This document shows, piece after piece, positions 9,592 to 24,971 of a DNA stretch of 30,749 nt. Made by a program: the position numbers and the translations under genes. This DNA comes from a bacterium (GTDB taxonomy: Bacteria > SZUA-182 > DTGQ01), in NCBI GenBank assembly GCA_040752695.1, contig JBFMGO010000077.1:1-30749 (forward strand), read 5' to 3'. The first letter of the stretch is position 1, and the number at the start of each line of letters is the position of its first letter. Under the pieces are notes generated by a model. That model was given only the letters and a program-made list of their open reading frames with translations. It was not told the DNA's origin and searched no databases.

Positions 9592-11715
9592 TTAGTTTGC
9601 CGTAGTTCCAGCCGGCTTTACCGTCACTGATGGGTGGTCTCTTTTATCTATCTTCTCGGTAAGGTTCTTGAGCCGCTCCTGGAACTGTTTCGTGAGTGAC
9701 CTTCCCTCACCCTCACTATTGACAATATGCGGGGTAATCAAGATAATCAGCTCAGTTTTATTGACCGTGTCTTTGGTACGCGAGAATAGATAGCCCAGAA
9801 TGGGGATATCCCCGAAGAACGGAATACCGGTTCGTGACTTGCTTTTTTGCTCCTTGATCAGACCACCGATGACCAGAGTTTCTCCATTGTGGACAACCAC
9901 CGAGGTTTCGGCCTTTCGAGTACTGAAAATGTATTTAGTATCGCTGGAACCCGGAGCCAGTTGGCTTACCTCCTGCTTTAACTTCAAAGAGACCATCCCC
10001 TTTTCGTTGATGTTGGGAGTAAAGTTCAACTTTATTCCGGCAGTTTTGTAATCATAAGTGATAGTGGTCCGCTGCGAGTTAGCGTCGTAAGACTCTCTGG
10101 CAACAGGATAATCCTGTGTAATTTCAATCGTCGCTTCCTGATTATCGGAAGCAAGAACGTGAGGACTGGAAAGAACATTCAGTTTATTTTCATCCGCTTT
10201 GGTATTGATAAGAGAGAGAAACCGGTCCTGCCTGTTGATCATATAGCTGATCCCATCCGGAAGTGCATCAAGATCGCTCGTGTTTCCAGAAAGCCTGTCT
10301 CCAATCTTCTGACCTATTCGATAGCTGGTTCCTCCGGAGGCCGGGCCGCCGGACAGCGTCCAGTCGAGGCCGAAATCTTTTATATCATCAATGCTGATTT
10401 CAGCTACCAGAACTTCGATCAGTGCCTGTTTCGGCTGTATATCCAATTTTTTGATGGTTTCCAGAACCGCCAGCCAGTTCCGGGGAGAGGTAGTGACAAC
10501 CAGACCGTTGATGTCTTCGGCTGCCACGATGGTCACATCACCCTGAACATCCCCTCCATCGGAGCCGCCAAAAGGAGGAAATCCGAAAGGAGAATTCGGC
10601 ACCGGCTGATTCGGCACCTTGGGAGCTCCAGCGGGTTGCTGAATGGGAGATCTCCAATCATCTTTTTTGGCAGTGCCTTTTTTATAAATGGAAGTGAGGG
10701 TAGTCGCTAACTTTTTAGCGTCTCCATTTTCGACATAATACACAAAAACCTTTTCTTTGGGCTGATAGAGGGGCTTATCAAGCTCCTGGACAAACTTCAA
10801 AAGCCTCTTCATGTTATTGGCCGTGTCGTTAATAATCATAAGATTCAGATCGTCGTGCTGAATGGGCCGGGGCGCCGACTTGGAAAGGAAAGGCTGCAAT
10901 ATCGCGATCATATCTTTTACCGGAATGTATTCCAGAGAAATAATCTGGGTAATGTACGTCTCTTCCTGAGGAAGATTATCGCCCCCTTTTCCGGCCATTA
11001 CTTCGATAGGATACTGCGACGCCTCTTTTGCGTAAATTACCTTAAAATATCGACCCGATGGGATCATGGTCAGTCCGTTGACTTCCAAAACGGATTGCAA
11101 AATGGGAAAAAGTTCACTGATAGGAACAGGCTTGGAGGTTTGCATGGAGATTTGCCCCTTGACTCCAGTTCCCATAATGTAATTCAAGCCAATGTATTCG
11201 CTCACCGTATTGATGATGTCATCAATAGCAGCGTTCTCAAAATTCAACGTCACATACTCTTCCCCAGAGGTATCCGCTCCGGAAGAGAGGATTTTCTGCT
11301 TGATTTCAGAAGGCATCATGGAAGGCGGTGTCTTTTGGCTCTGCGCCTTATCTTCGGGATTGTAGGGTGTAAACAGAGCGCGATCCTTTTCTTCCCCTTT
11401 CCCTTCCTCGTGCACCTGTCCTTCTTCTGCCTCCTTGTCCGATAATTCTTTCTGACCCCCATGTCCCCTGCGAAGATTACTCTTTTCCTCTTTCCCTTCC
11501 TCAGACTGACTCTGGCTCCTTCGCCTTCCTTCTTGTTCATCCTCTACCTTGTCTATTTTCGTTTTATAGGAACCCCTCCTGTCGGAGGTAAGAGCATCCT
11601 GTGAGGCCACAGAGTTATTCCCCCGGTTAGCAGCGCAGGAGCAAAGGAGCATTATCAAAGCAGCAGTTAGAAAGAACCCCTTCAATGGTTGCTGATGGAA
11701 AACATTATATCTCAT
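9592..11715 (-). CDS. gspD: Type II secretion secretin (predicted lipoprotein)
   Basis: N0 VTLNFENAAI, two Secretin_N-type repeats, LDIQPKQALIEVLVAE, GETLVIGGLI, GIPFFGDIPILGYLF, ELIILITPHIV; lipobox LCS-C27. Confidence 0.95.
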   Translation of the reverse strand: MRYNVFHQQPLKGFFLTAALIMLLCSCAANRGNNSVASQDALTSDRRGSYKTKIDKVEDEQEGRRRSQSQSEEGKEEKSNLRRGHGGQKELSDKEAEEGQVHEEGKGEEKDRALFTPYNPEDKAQSQKTPPSMMPSEIKQKILSSGADTSGEEYVTLNFENAAIDDIINTVSEYIGLNYIMGTGVKGQISMQTSKPVPISELFPILQSVLEVNGLTMIPSGRYFKVIYAKEASQYPIEVMAGKGGDNLPQEETYITQIISLEYIPVKDMIAILQPFLSKSAPRPIQHDDLNLMIINDTANNMKRLLKFVQELDKPLYQPKEKVFVYYVENGDAKKLATTLTSIYKKGTAKKDDWRSPIQQPAGAPKVPNQPVPNSPFGFPPFGGSDGGDVQGDVTIVAAEDINGLVVTTSPRNWLAVLETIKKLDIQPKQALIEVLVAEISIDDIKDFGLDWTLSGGPASGGTSYRIGQKIGDRLSGNTSDLDALPDGISYMINRQDRFLSLINTKADENKLNVLSSPHVLASDNQEATIEITQDYPVARESYDANSQRTTITYDYKTAGIKLNFTPNINEKGMVSLKLKQEVSQLAPGSSDTKYIFSTRKAETSVVVHNGETLVIGGLIKEQKSKSRTGIPFFGDIPILGYLFSRTKDTVNKTELIILITPHIVNSEGEGRSLTKQFQERLKNLTEKIDKRDHPSVTVKPAGTTAN

Positions 11716-11785
11716 ATATTGACCTCCGGATACTTAAACAGTAGATTCTGTAATCTTCATCATAATCATGCACTATATTTCTTTA

Positions 11786-12811
11786 TCAAGATGGCCCGCC
11801 ACCCTGCCGAAAGGGATTCAAAAACGGGGCGCCCTGTCTTCCGCGAGGAGGAGCTTGAAAAGCGCCGGGAGGCGGTGCATAGATAGGTCGCTGTATTGGA
11901 AACCGATATGGTGCTCCTGGGGGAACTCCCGGTGATCCAGGAGGTGTTAAAGGCGGATAAAATCCCGGTTGCCCCGGCTGTCCTTGAGGAGGCTGAAACG
12001 CAGGGAACCCCGGAGGCGGCTGATAAGCCGGATAGCCTGGTGGAGGGTTCGGAACTGGATAGCCTGGGGGAGGAGTAAAGCGCGGGGGCGCCTGCGGTTC
12101 CGATTGCGGATTTCGCACTCTTGGACCTCCCTGCACGTTTTGCGGAGGTTCTGGTTCCTGACCTGGAATCTGGGCATTCGCTGGCGCAGAGGGCTCCCGA
12201 AGGAGGAGCTCGTATTCTTCTCCATTTTTACTCAAAACGACCCGATCTGGCAAAATATCGACTATTTGGGATTCGGAAACTTCATCTCCGATCCGATAGA
12301 CTCTGGTCTTATCATCCGTAACCCTGCCAGGGATCGGAGGAAGAGGAACATCGCGAACTTCTCCATTCCCCAGCCTCACCTTCCTGGACCGCTTTTGAGG
12401 CTCCTCCCGGATCGATCCTTTCATAATTGCGGATTTTTTATCTCTGATAATCACTATCCCATACAGCGTTGGCTTTTTCATACCAGGCTGATTGCGTTCC
12501 GCCGGATATTGAGGGATTTCCATCCGCGGCTGATCGGTTGCATCCGTCGGAGGAGGAGGAGGTAGCCACTCCGTTCTTTCAGGCCGGAACAAATCCTTGT
12601 CCGCAATGACATCATAGGTATATAAGGCAGGTTTGGAGTCATCCTCGTCCTGGGGAATTACTTCCTTCGCGGAAATATTCCTTTTGGAAACCGGCAGAGA
12701 TCCTTTCCATGTTCCATTTACAATCGGAAGCCAGATCTGGTAAGCATTAAAACTCAATAAAGATACGATGACAAAAAGTCCAAGATTTATCCAGAAAATA
12801 CGTTTAAACAA
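11786..12811 (-). CDS. gspC: GspC-like (XpsN/XcpP-position) inner-membrane protein with Pro-rich tail
   Basis: TTG start with SD AGGAG; single N-terminal TM; DLFRPER; HR-domain-like LYGIVI...YRIGDEV...IVDILPDRVVL; lies just before gspD. Confidence 0.65.
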   Translation of the reverse strand: MFKRIFWINLGLFVIVSLLSFNAYQIWLPIVNGTWKGSLPVSKRNISAKEVIPQDEDDSKPALYTYDVIADKDLFRPERTEWLPPPPPTDATDQPRMEIPQYPAERNQPGMKKPTLYGIVIIRDKKSAIMKGSIREEPQKRSRKVRLGNGEVRDVPLPPIPGRVTDDKTRVYRIGDEVSESQIVDILPDRVVLSKNGEEYELLLREPSAPANAQIPGQEPEPPQNVQGGPRVRNPQSEPQAPPRFTPPPGYPVPNPPPGYPAYQPPPGFPAFQPPQGQPGQPGFYPPLTPPGSPGVPPGAPYRFPIQRPIYAPPPGAFQAPPRGRQGAPFLNPFRQGGGPS

Positions 12812-12855
12812 GAGGTTCTCCTGTATCGATATCTCTTTGACGGTCGCTCATGGTT

Positions 12856-13437
12856 TTAGGTGGTACCTTTACCAGTGCTGCCCTTGCTGTTTAAGATAAA
12901 GCCGGAAACATCAATTCTCGCTTCAACGTCTTTAGGGTCGCGTATCCTATAGACTCTGATATTGAGGTCAGAAATACTCAAAAACTTGGGGTATGATTCA
13001 ATCTGGAAAAGCAACTCCTTGAGTTTGGTAATGGTGCACTGCGTAGTGATCTGAACAGGCACTTCCAGGAGGATACCCCTCTCTTTTGGGTTGATGATTC
13101 TCTGGCTGTTAATCGTAAGCTCGTGTTCGGATGCCATATCATTCAGTATCGTCTGCAATTCCGCGGCAGCCACGGCTGGCGTATCTCCGGACAAGAGCCG
13201 CTCATCAAACGCAGCCCGCTTGCTCTTTAGGTACTCCAGGCGGGCTTGAATACTCCCCTTTTTTTCAGCGATCGAGGAATAACTTTCGATCCTACGCTTT
13301 TTTTCTTCAATCTCTTCTTTCGTTTTCGTATTTCTGACTATAATCGGATAGACAATGCCGAAAGCGAAAAGTAAAAATCCGACAATGCTGCCAATGAGCA
13401 GGACCGGCTCTTTATTTTTTTCACTAATCCTTTTCAC
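12856..13437 (-). CDS. gspM: T2SS protein M (GspM/PilO-like)
   Basis: N-terminal TM, coiled coil, LLSGDTPAVAAAELQ, LKELLFQIES..KFLSISDLNI; GTGA overlap with gspL. Confidence 0.8.
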   Translation of the reverse strand: MKRISEKNKEPVLLIGSIVGFLLFAFGIVYPIIVRNTKTKEEIEEKKRRIESYSSIAEKKGSIQARLEYLKSKRAAFDERLLSGDTPAVAAAELQTILNDMASEHELTINSQRIINPKERGILLEVPVQITTQCTITKLKELLFQIESYPKFLSISDLNIRVYRIRDPKDVEARIDVSGFILNSKGSTGKGTT

Positions 13438-15314
13438 GGCTTCTCCTCCCCCTGCTCGGCATTCTCGCCGGTTTCTTTCTCCTTCTCAGGGGCTTTCTCT
13501 TTACTGCCCGCTTTCTCTTTTCCCGAAGGAACTAAAGAATCCGCAGCATCCTTTCCCCTTTCGACATTCGCTTTAATCTTGAAGCGCTCCTTGCCCGGAC
13601 CCATCTTAGTGATACTGGAGGCAAATTGAACATTTTCAAGCAGAGGGGAAATCTCCAGCATGGGGATTAAATTTGATGGAGATTCAGAATAGCCGCCAAT
13701 TTCCAATTTTTCATTTGAAACATCCATATTATCCAGCCAGGTATCTGCCGGAAGAGTGGTAGTCAGCTCCTTTAAAATTTCCATTTTACTGACCTCTGTA
13801 CCAACAACCTTATCAATATTGGAGAGTTCCTTATCGATTTTCTCGATATCCAGGGAGATGTTCTTTACCTCGGTAACATCGGGCTGCAGGGATTTAAGCC
13901 GCCGCGTCATCTCAGAAGATATCAGACTGCTCTGGTAGCTTAAGCCAATAACCCAGGCCAGGCTCATGACTACGATCAAGACCATAAAAACGACCGTAGC
14001 CACAAAGTGATTTCTCTTTCTTTTGATTTTCTTTCCAGAGGCCAGGAAATTCAACATGAGCGGCTGATCTTCCAGCCCACGCAGAGCCAGCCCCGTAGCC
14101 GCCGATAAACTGGAAGTAATCTTGCCCGGGATACTCCTAGTCGTGATATTTTTGAGCGGATTCAGTATCCTGGGCTGAACACCTGCCCGGGCATGAATGT
14201 ATTCGGGTAAAAGGCCGCTGTACGCATCAGTCCCGGTAAGGATAATGTTATCGAGCACCCTTTGATCCTGGAAATCGGAGAAGACGTGCATGGCTATTTC
14301 CAGTTCCCGGATAATGTCCTGCCCCAGAGCGGATACACTCTCATCAACGGGCTGGAAAAGGGTTGACGATTCTGGCTGATGCGCCCCGGGTACGTCACCG
14401 GATAGGTCATTTCCCTTAAAATTCTCCTCATCCTGATTCTGCCCCTCTTCCACTATGGGAAATGGAGCAGTGATGGAGGATGGAGTCATTGTAGAGGATT
14501 GAGGCGTAGTTGAGGGTTGAGGCACAGTAGAGGGTTGAGGCATGGTAGATGGTTGAGTCACGGTGGAGGACTGATACACCGATGCTTCGTCCCTGGTCCA
14601 TGCCTGGCCTGACTCTTCGCCCGTCTCACTGGTGAAGGACTCTTCCAGGTATGCATCTTCCAGGCGACTTTCAATCCGCCTGAAGCTCCTGGTTATCCTG
14701 ATTTCCTTTCCGGCCAGAAGGCCCAGATCCACCCTGTTTTCCCCGATATCTACCAGTGCTGTGGTTGCATCTTCGCCCAGGTCATTCTGAGCAATCAGCC
14801 AGTTCACTCCGGCAACTGAAGTGATGTCTACCACCACCGGCTTTGCCTGCTCCAGGTCCAGCATGGTGAGTATCTTTTGCAAATCATCTTTTTTGACGAC
14901 ACCCAAAAGAACCCTCAACGAATTCTCTTCCCTGCTCAGGATCTGATAATCAAAGGCAACGTTCTGAACCGCAAAAGGAATGTGTCTCTCAACCTCATAC
15001 TCCAGCATCTCCTGCAACTGCTTTTCTTCAACCTTTGGCAAGAGAATCTCCTTGAGGATCACCTGTTCCTTTGGGAGCCCGACAACGATCTGGTCCGGCT
15101 TGACCCCCCGCTCCCGGACGTAATTGCGCAGATCAAGAGCCAAAGGATCGGGTTCACCTTCCACTGCCGCCTTACCCTGGGGGGAGGGCGCCGGCGGGTA
15201 CTTTTTGATGAAATAGTCGATAAGGACAATTCCCTTCAAAGTCCGCCCCAGGTGAACGATCCGAAGAATACGATCCCGAAAATCAATACCTAGGCTTTGT
15301 TGTAGATATAGCAA
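13434..15314 (-). CDS. gspL: T2SS protein L (PilM-like actin fold + TM + PilN-like domain)
   Basis: SLGID, EVERHIPF, ALVDIG, IILTG, ATGLALRG, one TM, ILKELTTTLPADTWL..LEIGGYS; TTG start. Confidence 0.85.
   Translation of the reverse strand: MLYLQQSLGIDFRDRILRIVHLGRTLKGIVLIDYFIKKYPPAPSPQGKAAVEGEPDPLALDLRNYVRERGVKPDQIVVGLPKEQVILKEILLPKVEEKQLQEMLEYEVERHIPFAVQNVAFDYQILSREENSLRVLLGVVKKDDLQKILTMLDLEQAKPVVVDITSVAGVNWLIAQNDLGEDATTALVDIGENRVDLGLLAGKEIRITRSFRRIESRLEDAYLEESFTSETGEESGQAWTRDEASVYQSSTVTQPSTMPQPSTVPQPSTTPQSSTMTPSSITAPFPIVEEGQNQDEENFKGNDLSGDVPGAHQPESSTLFQPVDESVSALGQDIIRELEIAMHVFSDFQDQRVLDNIILTGTDAYSGLLPEYIHARAGVQPRILNPLKNITTRSIPGKITSSLSAATGLALRGLEDQPLMLNFLASGKKIKRKRNHFVATVVFMVLIVVMSLAWVIGLSYQSSLISSEMTRRLKSLQPDVTEVKNISLDIEKIDKELSNIDKVVGTEVSKMEILKELTTTLPADTWLDNMDVSNEKLEIGGYSESPSNLIPMLEISPLLENVQFASSITKMGPGKERFKIKANVERGKDAADSLVPSGKEKAGSKEKAPEKEKETGENAEQGEEKP
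14469..14576 (-). repeat. Six 18-bp in-frame tandem repeats within gspL
   Basis: YQSSTV TQPSTM PQPSTV PQPSTT PQSSTM TPSSIT. Confidence 0.9.
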
Positions 15315-15438
15315 CGTAAAGCTCCATCTATAAGCTGTTTTCTGTTTCTTCGCCGGTTCTTCATTCTTCCGCTTGTTCTCATTCCTTCACAGCCGGGTGC
15401 CTGCTTCTTCGTTAATCCCTGTTTCTTTTCGCTTTTTC

Positions 15439-16536
15439 TCATTGTTTCTCTTCATCAGGCTGATCCAAAACATCTGTTTTAATTTCTTCATCGTACTTGG
15501 GAATATAATTATCATTCCAGGACAGGGGCTTCCAGTAATCCCGGTTCTGGACCAAAAAGGAAGCCATGACATGCCGCTGGACCGGAGAATTTTTTATAAT
15601 TCCAGTTGAGATAATTTGATAATAGCCGGCAGCAAACGCCTTATCATAAATACCGCCATTTAACTCCTTCTGACGTTCAACTTCTTCAGGGGATAGACTT
15701 CTGGGCCATCCGATGTCGTATGCATTCTTAATGACCTCTGGCCTGGCAGTATTGTAAAAAATATCAGCCTGAGGATTTCTGCCCTCATTATCAAGGTCAT
15801 TATTCACCTTATAATTCCTTTTAAAAGCGGACACTATCTCCTTTTTTCTGGCGGCCTCTTCTTCATTGTCGTCATCTTCAATGCGAAGTCCCCGAATCAG
15901 GCTCAGTTCCCCCTCGCTATCAAAGGGAGCATCCTTGCATTCATAACCCCTATCGTGAGATTTATACCAGTCATCCTCCGCTCCGATCCCGGGTGATCCG
16001 CCGGTTTGAGTTGATCCACCGATTACGTGATCATCATCTACCCAATCCATAATGGAACGGCTGATATTACTACTTTCCTCTGAAAAAGGGTCAATCTTGC
16101 AACTGCTCTCTAAAAACTTTTTAATCATTTCTACGCTTTTTGAATAATTCGCAGGATCAGCTAGCTTATTTAACGGTAACTTATTACCGGCATCTTTAAA
16201 TTTATAGTGGTATTTTCCACCGCCCAATTCATTGCTCCGGCAGGAAAATGGCATTCTGACCTCACCATCATCTCCCAGGCCAAAGACCTGCTCTTCGGAC
16301 TCAGGATAACTGTAGTGACCCTTTTCCTGACCGCAGATAGCCAGTTCATAGCGGCCGATCTCTATGCCGGCCCTGGCCAGATAATAGGCCTGGATTTCAT
16401 CACGAAAGGTTTTAGTCACTTCCACTTCCGTTCTCATGGAATGAGCAAACTCAAGAGCGATAAATCCAAGAAGAATCATAACCCATAACACCATCATCAA
16501 AGCGACACCTCTTTCACCTTTGTGCAACGGCGGCAT
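15439..16536 (-). CDS. gspK: T2SS minor pseudopilin K
   Basis: ERG|VALMMVLW (no E5, as usual for GspK), QAYYLARAGI, IMDWVDDD, GAED, ELSLIRG. Confidence 0.92.
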   Translation of the reverse strand: MPPLHKGERGVALMMVLWVMILLGFIALEFAHSMRTEVEVTKTFRDEIQAYYLARAGIEIGRYELAICGQEKGHYSYPESEEQVFGLGDDGEVRMPFSCRSNELGGGKYHYKFKDAGNKLPLNKLADPANYSKSVEMIKKFLESSCKIDPFSEESSNISRSIMDWVDDDHVIGGSTQTGGSPGIGAEDDWYKSHDRGYECKDAPFDSEGELSLIRGLRIEDDDNEEEAARKKEIVSAFKRNYKVNNDLDNEGRNPQADIFYNTARPEVIKNAYDIGWPRSLSPEEVERQKELNGGIYDKAFAAGYYQIISTGIIKNSPVQRHVMASFLVQNRDYWKPLSWNDNYIPKYDEEIKTDVLDQPDEEKQ

Positions 16537-17371
16537 TCTCCCTCCGCTCTACCAGAGGTAGTGGAATTTCAAAGCTCATGCTCATTTCCTGCCCTTCTCC
16601 ATCGTCCTTTCCTTCCGGCTTTCTGCGAATGGTCACTCGCAATTTTTCCGGCAATTCTTTCAGGTACTTCTCTCCGCTCTGAACATCCTCCAGAAGATTC
16701 CAGTCGTCATACCACTTCGGTTCGGCATCATTTCCATCTAACGTTATCGCTTCACCGTGGGGCTTTTTTACTCCATAATACTGAAATGTAATATCAACAA
16801 CATCCGGATAAGCTGAATACACATACGGCTTCGGATCCAGAGCGTCATCTTCGGCCTTATCTTCTTCTTTTTTGAATAGATACTGACCCAGCCAGAGGCT
16901 TTCTTCCATGACAAGACCCGGCTTATCCTCTTCCTGCCCCAGGTAGTATGATACCCGACGTAAGCTTCCTTCTTTCAACTGAGGGTTGATGCCGGAAGCT
17001 TTCGTAATAAATGTCACCTTTTTGGGTCCTCCCAAAAACACGACTGCCCAATTCAGGCGGTTCTGATCAAATTTTTTCTCTCCTGTGACATCAATCGTAT
17101 AGGTAGCCGGCTTCTTTATGCCGATGCAGGATTTGATATCCTGGATCAAGATATCAAAAGTACAACGTATTCTTTGAAGCTCTTCCATCCTTTTCTCTCC
17201 CGTCTCCCACGAGCGGATTCCCAGCCGAAACCCTCCCATGGTCACGGCCATGATCATACTCAGAATGGTCAGAGCGATCAGTACCTCAATAAGGGTAAAA
17301 CCCTTTTTCCAGTTCGCCTGCACAATGCTGTTCCACATCGAAGTGATGGTATATACCTTAAAAGAAATCAT
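16514..17371 (-). CDS. gspJ: T2SS minor pseudopilin J
   Basis: KKG|FTLIEVLIAL prepilin motif, RRVSYYL, LPEKLRVTI, operon position; true start could be the downstream Met12. Confidence 0.85.
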   Translation of the reverse strand: MISFKVYTITSMWNSIVQANWKKGFTLIEVLIALTILSMIMAVTMGGFRLGIRSWETGEKRMEELQRIRCTFDILIQDIKSCIGIKKPATYTIDVTGEKKFDQNRLNWAVVFLGGPKKVTFITKASGINPQLKEGSLRRVSYYLGQEEDKPGLVMEESLWLGQYLFKKEEDKAEDDALDPKPYVYSAYPDVVDITFQYYGVKKPHGEAITLDGNDAEPKWYDDWNLLEDVQSGEKYLKELPEKLRVTIRRKPEGKDDGEGQEMSMSFEIPLPLVERRENAAVAQR

Positions 17372-17380
17372 ACTCTTTTT

Positions 17381-17857
17381 TTATAAATCATTCTCTTTTT
17401 TATAAAACATCTTCACACTGACCAGTTCCACGCTTTTATCATTCTCTCCGCTTTTCCAGGAGACTCGAATCGTGATCTTGCGAAGCTGATATTTTTTCTC
17501 TAGCGAACCATTGTGCTTGGACCATTCTTCCTCAAGATCGGGAATTATATACTCCTCATCTCTTACCTGCCAGCGGTAACCTTCGAGAAAACTATTTTCT
17601 TCGCCGGTGCCGAACTCGCCCTGTTTCTCCATCGACTCCTCATAATCTTCCAGGTACACGTAGCCTAAGGCCTCATCCATCTTCATTCTCGCCCCCATCA
17701 CTGCCTTGCTGTAATCTGCCGATATCTTGGTCGAGCGCAGTGATCCGGAAAACAGGCGAAATAACGTGACCAAACCTACCGCCAGAATGGCTACCGCAAT
17801 CATTACTTCCAGTAATGTAAATCCTTGCGTCCTCCGGCATGCGGACTCTTTATTCAT
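17381..17857 (-). CDS. gspI: T2SS minor pseudopilin I
   Basis: QG|FTLLEVMIAVAI, GYRWQV, ITIRVSW, operon position. Confidence 0.85.
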   Translation of the reverse strand: MNKESACRRTQGFTLLEVMIAVAILAVGLVTLFRLFSGSLRSTKISADYSKAVMGARMKMDEALGYVYLEDYEESMEKQGEFGTGEENSFLEGYRWQVRDEEYIIPDLEEEWSKHNGSLEKKYQLRKITIRVSWKSGENDKSVELVSVKMFYKKENDL

Positions 17858-18458
17858 TTTCAGTTTTTCTCTTGACCGAAACCCTTCCCGTAATAGGATC
17901 TACCTCAATCTGAAAAGCCAGATTACGGTCTTTTAGAGCCAAAGTGACTTTTCCCCCGCTCGATTCACCCTTGGGATAGAAAAGAATCGCTCCTCTTTTA
18001 TCGGGCTCGTTCTGTAAGTCTTCCTCCTCACCCTCTTTATGAAAGGAGACGGTTACTTCCTCGGTCCTCAATTCTTTTTGTAAATCGACCTGGATTTGTA
18101 GCTCCTTAATATCTTCTTCACCCAAGGCATCTTTATTCGCTTCGGCAGCCTGCTCCTCCTCCGAAATATCCCCTCCATCGGACTCGGAATCCCCGCCTTT
18201 TTTCCTTGTCACGTTTACATACGTGTAGGAATGACCGTCAAACGTCACAGCGTATTCCTTTTTCCTGGAGATAGCTGTCTGTCTGGTATACCGCAAAACA
18301 GCGGCAAGCTTGCGGCTGGCGGATCGTAACCTCATCTTTTGCAGGGACTTGCCGATCTTCGGTACAGCCAGGGCCATCATGGAACCAATGATGACGATAA
18401 CGATCATCAGTTCGATGAGGGTGAAGCCTTTTTCCCTCAACAAATCATGATGCCTCAT
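17850..18458 (-). CDS. gspH: T2SS minor pseudopilin H
   Basis: KG|FTLIELMIV, LRYTRQTAI, ILFYPKGESSGG, EVDPITGRV; ATGA overlap with gspG. Confidence 0.88.
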   Translation of the reverse strand: MRHHDLLREKGFTLIELMIVIVIIGSMMALAVPKIGKSLQKMRLRSASRKLAAVLRYTRQTAISRKKEYAVTFDGHSYTYVNVTRKKGGDSESDGGDISEEEQAAEANKDALGEEDIKELQIQVDLQKELRTEEVTVSFHKEGEEEDLQNEPDKRGAILFYPKGESSGGKVTLALKDRNLAFQIEVDPITGRVSVKRKTENE

Positions 18459-18994
18459 TCTTCCCCTGGCCCATAAACCGGGCCTCTATGACCATCAGAA
18501 GCACTTGCCCCGGTACCCATGTTGGAAATGTCGTCATCGGTGTTCTCCTGGCCATCCGGCCCGGCTGAGGCGATTGTATATGAATCGGAGCCGTCGCATG
18601 TATAATAATAGTCATGTCCCCACGGATCCTTGGGCAGTTTTTTCACATAAGGACCATCCCAGGTACCTCCGCTTCCTTCCGGATTCGTTACGAGATCTTC
18701 CAGATTTGAAGGATAGCGCATGTTATCCAACCGGTAGGTGTCCAGGGCAGTTTCAAACAGGGCTATCTGACCCTGCGCGGCCTGGATCCTGGCTTTATCA
18801 ACTTTGCCGAACATTTTCGGCCCGACCAGAGCAGCCAAAAGGCCGATGATAATCATGACGATGAGCAATTCGATCAGGGTAAAACCTCTTCGATCGACAA
18901 TAATGTCGACAAGAAGATGCCGTCCGATTCCAGCCTGCGTGTTGGAGTGCCCTTCGTGTATTAATTTACCTAAAATTCCTCCATCATTTTTCAT
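18455..18994 (-). CDS. gspG: T2SS major pseudopilin G
   Basis: RRG|FTLIELLIV, ALDTYRLD, WDGPY, PKDPWG and Ca-binding-type SAGPDGQENTDDDI; 37-aa leader if the annotated start is right. Confidence 0.95.
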   Translation of the reverse strand: MKNDGGILGKLIHEGHSNTQAGIGRHLLVDIIVDRRGFTLIELLIVMIIIGLLAALVGPKMFGKVDKARIQAAQGQIALFETALDTYRLDNMRYPSNLEDLVTNPEGSGGTWDGPYVKKLPKDPWGHDYYYTCDGSDSYTIASAGPDGQENTDDDISNMGTGASASDGHRGPVYGPGEE

Positions 18995-19187
18995 GTTCTA
19001 CCCCCATAAATAATTTCTTTTGTTTCTCCTTGCAGGATATCCTTCCCATCCTCTATTGCCCGCAAGGGCACCCCTCTTTATTCTCAAAGAGGCATCCCTT
19101 TCCTTGAAGAACATCCCTGCACCCTTTTTAAAGGGGAGCGGAGAAATTTTTATTATGAACGGAAAATATGCATTTTTCAGGCCAAGC

Positions 19188-20405
19188 CTACATCGGAATA
19201 TCATTAATTCCAAAAATTGCCATCAGCATGGAGACAACGATAAAACCTACTACCAGACCCATGACCAATATCATTGCAGGCTCCAGCATGGATACCATAC
19301 GCTTGATTGAAGTGCGTGTTTCCCGGTCATAGGCATCGGCAATCTTAAACAGCATCGTTTCCAACTGCCCGGTCTCCTCTCCGACATCAATCATATGAAT
19401 GGCCATGGGAGGGAAGAGATGACATTGCATCAAGGGCTCGGAAATTTTCTCCCCTTCTTTGATCCTGCCCTGAATCTCTCTGATGGCCTTGGCCAGAACG
19501 GAATTTCCCATGATATCCTTGACAATGGCCAATGCCTGAAGAATGGGCACGCCGCTTTGAACCAGCGTTCCCAGGGTTCTGCTGAACCTGGAAACCTCGA
19601 TCTTCTGAGTTAAACTTCCCCAGACGGGAAAACGAAGTTTCAAAGAATCCCAGAACCACTTGCCTCCTTCTGTCTGCAAATATTGTCGAAGAGCCAAAAA
19701 CAGCACCAGGACCACTCCTATGATCAACCACCAGTAGTGGACCAGCCCATTGCTGATTCCCAGTAAAAACCGCGTGGACAGAGGCAAGACCTGACCCATG
19801 TCCGCAAAGATCTGGGTAAATTTCGGGACCACAAAGGTCAGCAGTATGGCCACCGCACCTCCGCCAACCAGGGTCAGGAGCACCGGATAAACCAGGGCCG
19901 AAGTGATACTTTCTTTAAATTCCTGAGAGCTCTCCAAAAACTCGGCCAATCTGCTCAAGACACCTTCCAGAACGCCGCCCGACTCCCCTGCCTTGACCAT
20001 GCTTACGTAAAGCCTTGAAAAAACCCTCGGATGGCGGGCCAGAGCATCGGTAAAATGACTTCCGCCGTGGACACTTTTCTGTACATCGGCAATGACCTGC
20101 TTCAGCTTTTTATTGTCGGTCAGTTCGGTCAGTATGGTTAAGCTTCTGTCCAGGGGGACCCCCGAAGAGGTGAGTGTCGCTAATTGGCCGGTAAAGATCA
20201 GAACATCCTTTTTCTTAATCCTCTGGCTAAAAGAGAAGGAGAGCTTTCGCTCGGTCGGAGATGATTTTCCTTTTTCCTCAACCTTGATCGGAAAAAAATT
20301 CGATTCCTGCAGCCGGGTTATTACAGCTTTCTTATCTTTTGCTTCAATGCTTCCGGTAACGAGCTTGCCAAGCCGATCCGTTGCTTTGTAGGTAAAAACC
20401 GCCAT
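19188..20405 (-). CDS. gspF: T2SS inner-membrane platform protein F
   Basis: MAVFTYKA, FTGQLATL..SGVPL, MVKAGESGG, SALVYP, VGEETGQL, LEPAMI. Confidence 0.95.
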   Translation of the reverse strand: MAVFTYKATDRLGKLVTGSIEAKDKKAVITRLQESNFFPIKVEEKGKSSPTERKLSFSFSQRIKKKDVLIFTGQLATLTSSGVPLDRSLTILTELTDNKKLKQVIADVQKSVHGGSHFTDALARHPRVFSRLYVSMVKAGESGGVLEGVLSRLAEFLESSQEFKESITSALVYPVLLTLVGGGAVAILLTFVVPKFTQIFADMGQVLPLSTRFLLGISNGLVHYWWLIIGVVLVLFLALRQYLQTEGGKWFWDSLKLRFPVWGSLTQKIEVSRFSRTLGTLVQSGVPILQALAIVKDIMGNSVLAKAIREIQGRIKEGEKISEPLMQCHLFPPMAIHMIDVGEETGQLETMLFKIADAYDRETRTSIKRMVSMLEPAMILVMGLVVGFIVVSMLMAIFGINDIPM

Positions 20406-20470
20406 GAAAAATTCTCATCCTTATCAGAATCTAAACGCATTCGAAGGTAGCTGATTTGAAGGAGGAAGGT

Positions 20471-22201
20471 CTATATCCCGATAGCATCCAGAACCTCAGT
20501 TTCATCCTCCTGGGTGACTCTCAGGACCTCCTCGATCGTAGTCATTCCTTTTTTCACCTTTTCCCAGCCATCTTCACGCAAAGTTTTCAGTCCGCCCTGA
20601 ATAGCCTTTTGTCGGATAATACTGGCGCCCGTTTTCTCGATAATCAACCTTCGGATTCCTTCATTGATGATCAATAGTTCATATAAACCGGTTCTCCCCT
20701 TATAGCCTGTATTTTTACATTCCTCGCACCCCTTGCCCCGATAGACGATAGCATTCTCCTTGTGCGGCAGATTCATGCGGGCCAGGGCCTTTTTATCCGG
20801 AATTACCGGCTGCCTGCATCGCCTGCAAATGGTCCGGACCAGCCTTTGAGCCAAAACTCCCTCCAGACAGGAAGCCACGAGAAACCCCTCGACTCCCATG
20901 TCCAGAAGCCGTGTCACTGCACCGCAGGAATCGTTGGTGTGCAGGGTGGAAAATACCAGGTGCCCGGTCAAAGCGGATTGAATCGCAATCTCCGCTGTTT
21001 CCAGATCCCGGATTTCTCCTATCATCATGACATCAGGGTCCTGCCGGACGATAGACCGCAATCCGCTGGCAAAGGTCAAACCAATCTTGGCATTCACCTG
21101 GATCTGATTTACCCCGCTTAACTGATATTCCACCGGGTCTTCGACCGTAATAATTTTTTTATCCGGAGAATTGATTTTGTCCAGACCAGCATAGAGAGTA
21201 GTGGTTTTACCACTTCCCGTAGGCCCGGTAACCAGAACAATCCCGTGCGGTTTTCGGATCAGGCCCTCGAAAAGAGGCAGCTTGTCTTCAGGAAACCCGA
21301 GTTCCTCCAGGGTCAATAAAATGCTGCTGCGATCCAGGATACGCATGACCACGCTCTCCCCGTACAGGGTGGGAACTGTGGACACACGAAGATCCACCTT
21401 CTTGCCCGCGACGCGAAGCCTGACCCTTCCGTCCTGCGGCAGACGCCTTTCGGCAATATTGAGATTAGCCATAATCTTTACCCTCGAAGTGATCGCAGCC
21501 TGAAGGCGCTTCGGAGGAGATTCGATATCATGCAAAATCCCGTCAACTCTCAAACGAACCAGGACCTTATCTTCGAAGGGCTCGATATGAATGTCACTCG
21601 CCCCATCATCGATCCCCCTCGTAATGATCAGGTTAACCAGCTTAATGATCGGGGCCTCGGATGCCATATCGCGCAATTGATTGATATCTTCATCCTCACT
21701 GGTGCTCACCAGTTGCATTTCATCTTCATTCATATCCCCGATAATCCGCTCCATGGTTGTTGCCGCACCGCCATATTGCCTCTCGATGGCAGCCATAATG
21801 TCAGTTTCCTTGGAAATATACAGCTTTACTTTACAATTGGCAAAAAGGGCAATCTCATCAATGGTGGAAAAATCCATGGGAGAGGCCGTGGCCATGGACA
21901 GGGTATTCGCTTTCATCTCCAGCGGGAAAAATTTATACTGTTTCATAAACTGTGGCGAGAAATCAACGCCCAGAAACGGTGTCTCCGGATATGCCGATGC
22001 AGGCAAATAAGGCAGATGCAAATAAGTACTGAGAACCTTGTATACATTCTCTTCCGAAACCAGGCCAAGATCCACCAAAACCTTTTCCAAAGGCTGCCCG
22101 GTACTTTTATGCTCCTCAAGAGCTCTGTTGAGATCCTCCTGATCAATCAACTTCTGATTCAACAAAAGCTCACATATCCTGTTTTTATCAAAGCCAATCA
22201 T
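20471..22201 (-). CDS. gspE: T2SS ATPase E with N-terminal MshEN-like domain
   Basis: ASDIHIEP, Walker A GPTGSGKTTT, TVEDPVE, RQDPDVMMIGEIRD, LTGHLVFSTLHTND, tetra-Cys motif. Confidence 0.96.
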   Translation of the reverse strand: MIGFDKNRICELLLNQKLIDQEDLNRALEEHKSTGQPLEKVLVDLGLVSEENVYKVLSTYLHLPYLPASAYPETPFLGVDFSPQFMKQYKFFPLEMKANTLSMATASPMDFSTIDEIALFANCKVKLYISKETDIMAAIERQYGGAATTMERIIGDMNEDEMQLVSTSEDEDINQLRDMASEAPIIKLVNLIITRGIDDGASDIHIEPFEDKVLVRLRVDGILHDIESPPKRLQAAITSRVKIMANLNIAERRLPQDGRVRLRVAGKKVDLRVSTVPTLYGESVVMRILDRSSILLTLEELGFPEDKLPLFEGLIRKPHGIVLVTGPTGSGKTTTLYAGLDKINSPDKKIITVEDPVEYQLSGVNQIQVNAKIGLTFASGLRSIVRQDPDVMMIGEIRDLETAEIAIQSALTGHLVFSTLHTNDSCGAVTRLLDMGVEGFLVASCLEGVLAQRLVRTICRRCRQPVIPDKKALARMNLPHKENAIVYRGKGCEECKNTGYKGRTGLYELLIINEGIRRLIIEKTGASIIRQKAIQGGLKTLREDGWEKVKKGMTTIEEVLRVTQEDETEVLDAIGI

Positions 22202-22456: not shown

Positions 22457-22523
22457 CTGAATGATGAAACAACTGGATAATAAAACAACCTGGACGATAA
22501 AATAAGCTGGACGATATAATAAC
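22457..22523. repeat. Four degenerate 16-17-bp tandem repeats
   Basis: CTGAATGATGAAACAA / CTGGATAATAAAACAAC / CTGGACGATAAAATAAG / CTGGACGATATAATAAC. Confidence 0.85.
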
Positions 22524-22577
22524 CTGAGCTGTAGAACGGCCGGCCTGGGCGACAAATAATCCGCGTGTAAATAATGT

Positions 22578-22617
22578 GTCCCTTTTCTCCCGGGCAGGAG
22601 ACCGGGAGAAAAGGGAC
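22578..22617 (-). terminator. Strong hairpin downstream of the repeat-protein gene
   Basis: Perfect 16-bp stem GTCCCTTTTCTCCCGG / CCGGGAGAAAAGGGAC, 8-nt loop, 32 nt after the stop; weak U-tail (ACATTATTT). Confidence 0.7.
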
Positions 22618-22649: not shown

Positions 22650-23501
22650 TTAAATTACCGCTGGTGCCAGTGAAGCTATAAAGGAACCTGTCCCGATAAT
22701 TGAGGTACTGTTGATCTGAGTATAAGTACCGGTCATATCAGTGGGAGAGGTAAGTGAGCAAACGATATCGATCTGGATCGTTTGACTGCCAATTCCAAGA
22801 CCGGCGCCAGAGAGAATAATCTGATTATTCAGTATTTCACCAGTAACGTCTACGATAACTCCAAGCACAGGGTTACCTACCAACTGGACATAACCGGAAA
22901 CTGCTGTCGGTAGTACAGGATCCAGGACAAGGTTCAAGGTTATAGGCCCTGTGGCATACACTACGCTCTTGGTCGTTGTCGTACTCCAGGTACCTGTCCA
23001 TGTTCCAGCCTGTTCAGCAAGACCATATCTCAGTCCGCCGTAGAGACTGCTGCCATACAGGCCGCCGTACAGTCCACCGTAGAGGCTGCTGCCATACAAG
23101 CCGCCGTACAGTCCGCCGTAGAGACTGCTGCCATACAGGCCGCCGTACAGTCCACCGTAGAGGCTGCTGCCATACAGCCCGCCGTACAGTCCGCCGTAGA
23201 GACTGCTGCCATACAGGCCGCCGTACAGTCCACCGTAGAGGCTGCTGCCATACAGGCCGCCGTACAGTCCACCGTAGAGGCTGCTGCCATACAAACCGCC
23301 GTACAGACCGCCATAAAGGCTGCTGCCATACAGGCCGCCGTACAGTCCGCCGTAGAGGCTGCTGCCATACAGCCCGCCATAGAGACTGCTGCCATAACCA
23401 TAACTATAATATGCTTGAACATTTCCCTGAGGAATTACGGCTAATACGAATAATAAAATAGAAGAAATGATTAAAAGTTTGCCCTTAGAAGAATAATTCA
23501 T
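22650..23501 (-). CDS. Exported Gly/Tyr/Leu/Ser tandem-repeat protein with C-terminal beta-rich domain
   Basis: SD AGGAGAGGAG 9 nt before ATG 23501 (283 aa); Sec signal ending VQA; 121-aa repeat array whose nucleotide variation is all synonymous; ~120-aa beta-strand-patterned C-terminus. Confidence 0.9.
23031..23393 (-). repeat. 39-bp coding tandem repeat ([13 protein letters not shown])
   Basis: CTGCTGCCATA recurs on + at 23047, 23086, 23125, 23164, 23203, 23242, 23281, 23320, 23359, 23386 (eight 39-nt steps, one 27-nt step). Confidence 0.98.
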
Positions 23502-23940
23502 GATGATAATCTCCTCTCCTATCCACAAAAAAATCTTGAAAAATTATTCCCTTCTAAAACTCCCCTAAAAACACCCCTAAAATCTCCCCTTTTTCCCATA
23601 CGCTTTTTTGCAAGTACCTCCCTTGCTTTATGAAGGAAAAATGAGAATAACTTCTCCTTTTTTTGGCATGCACCTCCCTTCCTGAGTAGAGCGCAGTGAT
23701 GATAGATTAGCTGGCCCTACTGGCTGTTCTCATCCTCTACGAAGGAGAAATGAATCATACATAAAAAGCAAGCTTACCCATAAAACAAGTTCACTTACGG
23801 AGCAGGACATTGCACGTGCCCCGGAATGATAAAAACGGGCATCCAGATTACGCATTTGTTGCCCAGTATACTCGTGCTCTGATAAATTTTTACCACACGG
23901 CATTTGGCTAATGCCCACTTCGAGCTACCACCGCACTATC

Positions 23941-23956
23941 AGCAATATTGATACCA
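23941..23956 (-). promoter_or_regulatory. sigma54 (-24/-12) promoter facing the repeat-protein gene
   Basis: TGGTATCAATATTGCT = TGG-N8-TTGC, exact GG-N10-GC spacing. Confidence 0.7.
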
Positions 23957-24375: not shown

Positions 24376-24741
24376 TTACGGGCGGCGAATCCGGATTCCT
24401 TCCTCTATCAGGGTAATGATCATGCCCTCTTGAAATTTTATCTTTTCAGTTAATTTTCCCAGCAATCTCATGATATTGGCAGGGTTCAAATTACCCGGAC
24501 GGATAAAAATGATCCCATAGTGTGGTTTCAACCCGTATACGGCCAAGGTGCCAAAGTCTTTGTCACAAGTCAAGATAACTCTCTTCTCTGCCTGAGCTCT
24601 CTCCAGAATTTCATGATCAGTCTTCCCTTGCCAGCCAAGCTCTTTTATATCCAGCACATCTGCGCCACGCTCTCGAAGGTAAGCCACCACTTTAGGAGAA
24701 ATATTCTCATCAGCCAAGAATCTTATTAAGCCCAGTTCCAT
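24376..24741 (-). CDS. DUF5615 family PIN-like protein (VapC45-like toxin)
   Basis: RFLADENIS, G..DHEIL, RVILTCDKDFG, GIIFIR; TGATG overlap with the upstream DUF433 gene. Confidence 0.9.
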   Translation of the reverse strand: MELGLIRFLADENISPKVVAYLRERGADVLDIKELGWQGKTDHEILERAQAEKRVILTCDKDFGTLAVYGLKPHYGIIFIRPGNLNPANIMRLLGKLTEKIKFQEGMIITLIEEGIRIRRP

Positions 24742-24971
24742 CAGACTTTCCCAAGAGGAATATAAATATCGTTTTTAAGCGCGTGGGCCGCATATTCTAA
24801 AACTGCATGTATGTCTTCCTCGGTGATATGGGGATAATCTTCCAAAATTTCTGCCTGGGTCATTCCGGAAGCTAACAACTCAAGGATAAATTCTACGCTG
24901 AGCCTTGTGCCTTTGATAATTGGTTTTCCCCCCAGTATTTCAGGGTTTATTACGATTCGCTCTCTATACAT
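24741..24971 (-). CDS. DUF433 domain protein (VapB45-like antitoxin)
   Basis: RIVINPEILGGKPIIKGTRLSVEFILELLASG..EILEDYPHI..EDIHAVLEYA. Confidence 0.93.
   Translation of the reverse strand: MYRERIVINPEILGGKPIIKGTRLSVEFILELLASGMTQAEILEDYPHITEEDIHAVLEYAAHALKNDIYIPLGKV

Follow-up and report, generated by a model that had tools for sequence, protein, structure and literature searches.

The window, a stretch of 30,749 nucleotides from contig JBFMGO010000077.1, carries on its minus strand a gene of 283 codons plus stop (22650..23501, with the ATG at 23501 and the stop at 22650), whose protein is already on record as called. The product opens with a predicted Sec signal peptide of 30 residues (23412..23501, minus strand; sequence read by eye) that ends in V-Q-A and is followed by a mature YY, and comparison with the paralogues finds a hydrophobic stretch, then a small residue and YY, in most of them. 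Next comes a Gly/Leu/Tyr/Ser low-complexity array of 127 residues (protein residues 31-157; 23031..23411, minus strand), defined from the translation and with Tandem Repeats Finder, in which YYSYGY precedes a unit of 9 residues, then 13-residue units in eight identical copies, and finally a partial unit of 8 residues. The array consists of 47 Gly, 31 Tyr, 28 Leu and 21 Ser, with no charged residue and, by composition count, no Pro, His, Asn or Gln; 27 Tyr fall in the 121 residues past YYSYGY. A preliminary description of this DNA had given the unit order, the count of 27 Tyr in 121 residues and the absence of charge, all of which are exact. The C-terminal barrel, the dozens of paralogues and the common upstream signals described below had been missed. 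The mature chain as a whole holds 35 Tyr and 8 charged residues in 253, and no His. At the DNA level, Tandem Repeats Finder reports a period of 39, 8.9 copies, 91% matches and a score of 591. The eight 39-nt units comprise five distinct DNA sequences, and their pairwise codon differences are 74 synonymous and 0 non-synonymous. Because the differences between units are all synonymous, the frame of the array is the coding frame and the repeat peptide is under selection, which shows that purifying selection acts on it.

The C-terminal part of the protein (22653..23030, minus strand) is modelled by AlphaFold2 over 123 residues (23021-22653) as an eight-stranded antiparallel beta-barrel of an unannotated family. 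With a 126-row alignment the model reached a pLDDT of 92.0 and a pTM of 0.85, while the single sequence gave a pLDDT of only 43. Neither the barrel nor the whole protein matched Pfam, NCBIfam or, by sequence, the PDB; for the whole protein, 0 Pfam families were returned at E 0.01 and at E 0.1, and the PDB sequence search with the barrel gave weak GFP stretches or nothing, and no avidin. The Avidin family matched 0 of 25 barrel members at E 1, and the sole Avidin/lipocalin-type Pfam row among these 25 is weak (E 0.087). Fold searches returned designed barrels (Z 14.6 and 13.9), Cap15 (13.2), OmpA (12.9), zebavidin (11.9) and NHBA (11.3), with BFA1 and DUF3598 at the top Foldseek ranks; the matches span many kinds of eight-stranded barrel, and no single family stands out. 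Read off the strands and the sequence, Trp, Ile, Leu, Val and Phe alternate with Thr, Ser, Asn, Gln and Asp, and this alternation, read by eye on a model, suggests a barrel of the soluble type in which the conserved Trp/Gly/Tyr set would form an inward hydrophobic core. The soluble up-down barrels (avidin/streptavidin, the Cap15 C-domain, NHBA/fHbp/TbpB and designed proteins) share the fold (Z 11-14.6, rmsd 1.6-3.1 Å over about 96-108 residues) and the G-x-W start, but identity is 9-17%, and the membrane barrels OmpA, OmpW and PagL score alike. Avidin and streptavidin likewise are eight-stranded antiparallel barrels, but no sequence-profile match joins them to this domain. Distant free-standing relatives of the barrel occur without a repeat in unrelated proteins, among weak hits in the tail of a profile search and leads from the Atlas, and because of these the barrel may have a function of its own.

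The preliminary description had called for a genome scan for paralogues, and when run on the source genome this returned 33 ORFs with a Gly/Tyr module, spread over 25 loci; the barrel accompanies the module in 18 of these ORFs and is missing from the other 15. Because 15 of the 33 lack the barrel, the Gly/Tyr module stands on its own. The scan also found 26 barrel ORFs, eight of which are free of the Gly/Tyr module. The mature Gly/Tyr chains mostly start with YY, and across the family Gly follows Tyr in 643 of 754 cases, with Leu, Gly or Met mostly preceding it. Unit length and register differ freely from one paralogue or orthologue to the next, yet the composition is preserved (40% Gly, 22% Tyr, 19% Leu and 10% Ser), as expected if bulk composition matters. 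The arrays are fused to the barrel, to a QNMY module, to a domain bearing CxxCH or to Pro/Thr/Val tails; the barrel in turn joins various low-charge modules (in one genome, G007, a Trp/Pro module), with up to five barrels per chain. By a simple heuristic for secretion and low charge, which like the background gene starts used below is approximate, about 95 of 931 secreted-looking genes are near-uncharged, with less than 7.5% charged residues in the mature part. The Trp/Pro module (LPPYNTLWPLW...) itself marks a second unannotated secreted family of 25 ORFs (for example C7:87623-88186, C45:33894-38839 and C63:21820-24672). The domain with a single CxxCH motif, a possible c-type haem site, ends some Gly/Tyr proteins (C1:142119-142880, P0156, P0157, P0169 and P0170). 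At C18:35894-37663 lies the gene of a secreted, protease-like protein whose N-terminal region is low in charge.

Several signals lie upstream of the array-barrel gene, and such signals are overrepresented across the family. About 440 nt 5′ of the start, a sigma-54-type -24/-12 motif, TGGTATCAATATTGC, occurs on the minus strand (23942..23956) as a consensus match only, and RpoN is encoded in the source genome. The upstream motif patterns were picked after a k-mer scan had shown enrichment; as counted, the sigma-54-type motif precedes 13 of 33 family genes versus 99 of 2122 others that have long intergenic regions, and in a held-out set it precedes 13 of 53 other low-charge secreted genes versus 41 of 502 (p 7e-4). 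It is also found upstream of four of nine relatives checked, and these are the four closest. Nearer the gene are two Shine-Dalgarno-like motifs on the minus strand, one at -177 (23672..23678), behind which lies a 13-codon ORF (23669-23628) which two orthologous leaders do not conserve, and one at -121 (23616..23622) with no ATG behind it. Such motifs, placed 40-300 nt 5′ of the start, occur before 15 of 33 family genes versus 74 of 712 secreted-looking genes (the opposite strand gives 0 of 33) and, in the held-out set, before 17 of 53 versus 48 of 502; the majority are not followed by a start codon. The possibility of a stronger Shine-Dalgarno right at the start was considered and rejected (14/37 versus 881/3626, p 0.08); the enrichment sits farther upstream. 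Folding of the 433-nt leader is no better than that of shuffled sequence (z 0.02), the leader has no Rfam match, and a weak test found no CsrA-like pattern. The STAB-SD of Bacillus thuringiensis cry3A is described as likewise Shine-Dalgarno-like, non-initiating and about 100-200 nt 5′ of the start, where it blocks RNase J1 (PMC4113751). As RNase J was not found in the source genome, that mechanism cannot carry over as described.

Downstream, a perfect 16-bp hairpin just 3′ of the stop (22578..22617, minus strand), between the gene and a type II secretion system (T2SS) operon, is a likely terminator or 3′ stabiliser, with a weak U-tail and from a scan that returns equally many sites in shuffled sequence. 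The T2SS operon is complete (gspE, F, G, H, I, J, K, L, M, C and D; 9592-22201). Within it, GspL has a short Pro/Gln/Ser/Thr repeat (14483-14574) and GspC a long Pro-rich tail, and a 17-bp direct repeat of 3.8 copies lies in the intergenic region 5′ of gspE (22463-22526). A link to the T2SS by adjacency was tried and rejected, with no family gene in the flanks (up to 1.5 kb) of five out of five gspE orthologues. The closest orthologues of the array-barrel gene have other neighbours than the T2SS, and the adjacency looks incidental, a statement that concerns adjacency alone and not export by the T2SS. Elsewhere in the window are an ORF for a lipoprotein-like protein with a weak lipocalin-like domain (259-1548) and, directly upstream of the promoter region of the gene, a DUF433/DUF5615 (PIN-like) pair that is likely a toxin-antitoxin system (24376-24971).

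The barrel turned up in all 13 genomes examined from the order, in none of 7 from the rest of the phylum and in none of 11 more distant ones. The LYGGLYG and Trp/Pro patterns show the same split, each being present in 13 of 13 genomes inside the order and 0 of 7 outside (reversed controls 0), the genomes compared being kin and not independent draws. Among the genomes compared, the Gly/Tyr and barrel family is confined to this one order of uncultured bacteria. One relative, Zod_Metabat.896, is described as assigned to phylum SZUA-182 in a novel class and order (PMC9040765). Against 1.84 billion representatives, the barrel profile had 201 matches at E 0.001 and 88 at 1e-10, and no relative was found in viral contigs. 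Metagenomes gave 38 loci that carry LYGG four times in tandem; by reading, 21 have the signal-plus-array layout and nine have the barrel, while the rest are one unrelated lipoprotein-like protein and 16 fragments or loci without the layout. A search with the repeat only gave 23 matches among 8000 candidates scored, three of which (P0159, P0161 and P0167) are an unrelated family with an internal LYG/NSLYG repeat and no signal peptide. Because the repeat search also returns this unrelated family, Gly/Tyr repeats as such are not unique to the order.

On balance, we think that the gene product is probably a subunit of a non-covalent, Tyr-stacking material of the envelope or matrix, convergent with the modules of suckerins and beta-keratins and outside those families. 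We read the protein in this way because of the selection on composition, the shuffling of modules, the size of the family, its common range, its common upstream signals and the analogy to suckerin M2 modules and corneous beta-proteins. In this scheme, the sigma-54 promoter would transcribe the gene along with many of its siblings, leading to bulk production under some condition, and the product would be exported by Sec and then cleaved to leave a YY N-terminus. The charge-free Gly/Leu/Tyr arrays of many paralogues would stick to one another through stacked Tyr rings, hydrogen bonds and hydrophobic contacts, forming a coacervate or gel, which may mature to local beta structure, while the soluble barrel, or another C-terminal module swapped in for it, would be the folded unit brought into the material. 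The outcome would be a multi-component protein material beyond the cytoplasmic membrane, such as a periplasmic layer, a sheath, a cyst-like coat or a biofilm matrix. Genome searches identified no route across the outer membrane; the Slam translocon (PF04575) appeared in 2 of 20 genomes and was absent from the matches of the source genome, in a search whose controls were silent. The self-assembling structural role put forward in the preliminary description is kept here as the most likely interpretation, minus its covalent part, the dityrosine or DOPA cross-links. A bolder reading, which we hold to be possible yet rather doubtful, is that the order makes an envelope resembling keratin or chorion out of some 100 near-uncharged secreted proteins of one co-regulated family, independently of the animal materials. 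Such an envelope would be made up of Gly/Tyr arrays, the new barrel, the Trp/Pro module and Pro/Thr tails, and be neither an S-layer, a pilus nor a curli-type amyloid.

Cohesive Gly/Tyr/Leu modules are known from animal hard tissues and serve as templates for engineered materials. If the material reading is right, a bacterial lineage exporting dozens of such modules by Sec, together with a folded partner domain of natural origin, would mean that Gly/Tyr/Leu chemistry arose independently; it would also supply naturally occurring sequence variants and offer a testable way into the envelope of a phylum-level lineage that is still unstudied. The one protein could be produced and assayed with no need to grow the organism. 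A literature search, with subscription papers mostly outside its coverage and supplements unsearched, returned no description of such bacterial proteins.

The evidence for a cohesive array has to be weighed against the barrel as the working part of the protein, for instance as a carrier of, or receptor for, a small hydrophobic ligand in the manner of avidin- or lipocalin-type barrels, with the array reduced to an envelope tether or a pro-region that is cut off. The barrel has the fold of barrels that bind ligands (Z 13.2 for Cap15, 11.9 for zebavidin) and in 8 of 26 ORFs has no Gly/Tyr module, but 15 of 33 Gly/Tyr proteins have no barrel, and the exact keeping of eight units exceeds what a disposable linker needs. 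For a pro-region, there is a single Arg at the array-barrel junction, and a motif picked after inspection, R-x-[AP]-[AQH]-[AVQ], which is a possible processing site on sequence grounds, occurs in 21 of 95 low-charge secreted proteins versus 0.5 in shuffles. However, the junction itself does not match this motif, and its Arg is replaced in several close paralogues. Taken together, we regard a ligand-binding role with a subordinate array as unlikely. An ordered functional amyloid fibre of the curli or Fap type, formed by the array and displaying the barrel, is less probable again and has in our view only a slim chance of being correct. Eight exact 13-residue units would suit it, but the paralogues have no common unit length, and the array is devoid of Asn and Gln, which form the ladders of curli. 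None of the CsgG matches listed for the genome extends past the first half of the profile, and they are not order-specific. A Gly/Leu/Tyr peptide derived from suckerin M2 is reported to form beta-sheet (PMC11931252), a point in favour of the fibre.

Covalent chemistry on the tyrosines was also considered. The 35 Tyr among 253 mature residues, in a flexible Gly context, would lend themselves to oxidative cross-linking through dityrosine or DOPA, as in chorion or byssus. The preliminary description had proposed this outcome, but multicopper oxidase/laccase, di-haem peroxidase, KatG, DyP and haem-copper oxidase (COX1) were not found in the 96.6%-complete genome, with positive controls, and no enzyme family was found to recur beside the 25 Gly/Tyr loci. 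Searches of the genome for tyrosinase and animal peroxidase were blank, and their controls were silent as well. We accordingly rate cross-linking as very improbable, though abiotic or unfamiliar chemistry might still bring it about. A radical SAM splicease could instead act on the LYG and MYG sites, or the array could be a multi-core RiPP precursor. Spliceases are described as acting at XYG motifs, MYG included (PMC11414181), and the array provides XYG sites, as the residues flanking Tyr throughout the family show. The genome has two splicease-like loci (TIGR03913 at 253 and 237 bits, below the cut-off of 592), an orthologue of the enzyme at 71% identity or more is found in 9 of the 12 further genomes from the order versus 0 of 7 outside, and one Gly/Tyr paralogue lies 2.4 kb from the splicease-like enzyme. 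Against this, the enzyme has its own leader-tagged YG substrate next to it in 8 of 9 orthologous loci examined, and Gly/Tyr proteins have a signal peptide where a splicease substrate has its leader. Moreover, one genome (G001, 96% complete) has no close splicease orthologue yet 121 LYGGLYG matches, and a CxxxCxxC protein lies within 4 kb at only 2 of the 25 loci, close to the rate of 38 in 4112 across the genome. Because the splicease-like enzyme has its own substrate, a RiPP is unlikely, and we place it fractionally below even cross-linking. The preliminary description had also ranked a RiPP as the weaker alternative, and that ranking holds for another reason: it had cited the lack of a modifying enzyme in the window, but the genome encodes splicease-like radical SAM enzymes with a leader-tagged substrate of their own. 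Of the loci concerned, a radical SAM pair at L077:8701-12594 (C15) is followed by a 234-residue leader-tagged YG substrate, and the splicease-like copy at L078 (C18) has no leader-tagged YG substrate in the ORF list.

If the material reading is right, the protein acts in the manner of the cohesive Gly/Tyr modules of animals, yet comparison with known systems places it in none of the suckerins, keratins, avidins, curli proteins or spliceotides. Curli CsgA and FapC are similar in Sec export, in repeats and as candidate matrix proteins, but their Asn/Gln repeats, fixed unit and dedicated operon are absent here, and no full-length CsgG is among the matches listed. Spliceotide precursors share the XYG sites, but the combination of a leader/Y protein and a linked splicease gene is not found for the array. 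The chicken scale beta-keratin may have a similar 13-residue repeat, although the literature search did not return this repeat. No Pfam match to corneous beta-protein, keratin-associated or chorion families was obtained for the protein at E 0.01 or 0.1. In layout, and by analogy only, bird and reptile corneous beta-proteins (beta-keratins) and high-Gly/Tyr keratin-associated proteins likewise combine a folded beta unit with Gly/Tyr-rich repeats of variable length (PMC8072682). Their Gly/Tyr regions are thought to cohere via ring stacking and hydrogen bonds, with paralogues mixed to tune the material (PMC8072682), and YGGLYG itself is reported from turtle peptides (PMC8074788). In contrast to the eight-stranded barrel seen here, the corneous proteins are intracellular and Cys-cross-linked, and are built on a 34-residue filament-forming sheet. 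Gly/Tyr-rich modules are described as the cohesive matrix in both suckerins and corneous beta-proteins (PMC11931252; PMC8072682; PMC8074788). Squid suckerins and the bacterial family are each multigene families of modular secreted proteins, and the M2 modules of the former abound in Gly, Leu and Tyr as GGLY, GGY and GYG (PMC11931252), which are also found in the array. The suckerin M1 module, abounding in Ala, Val, Thr and Ser as well as His, and its Pro flanks are absent here, as is His as a pH trigger, while the bacterial protein adds a globular barrel at its end, comes from a bacterial host and has no sequence homology shown to suckerins. The likeness to animal proteins is purely compositional, and four-letter low-complexity sequence converges easily. 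The resemblance to suckerins noted in the preliminary description is thus borne out in the composition of the modules, and it is convergence, not homology, that the comparison supports.
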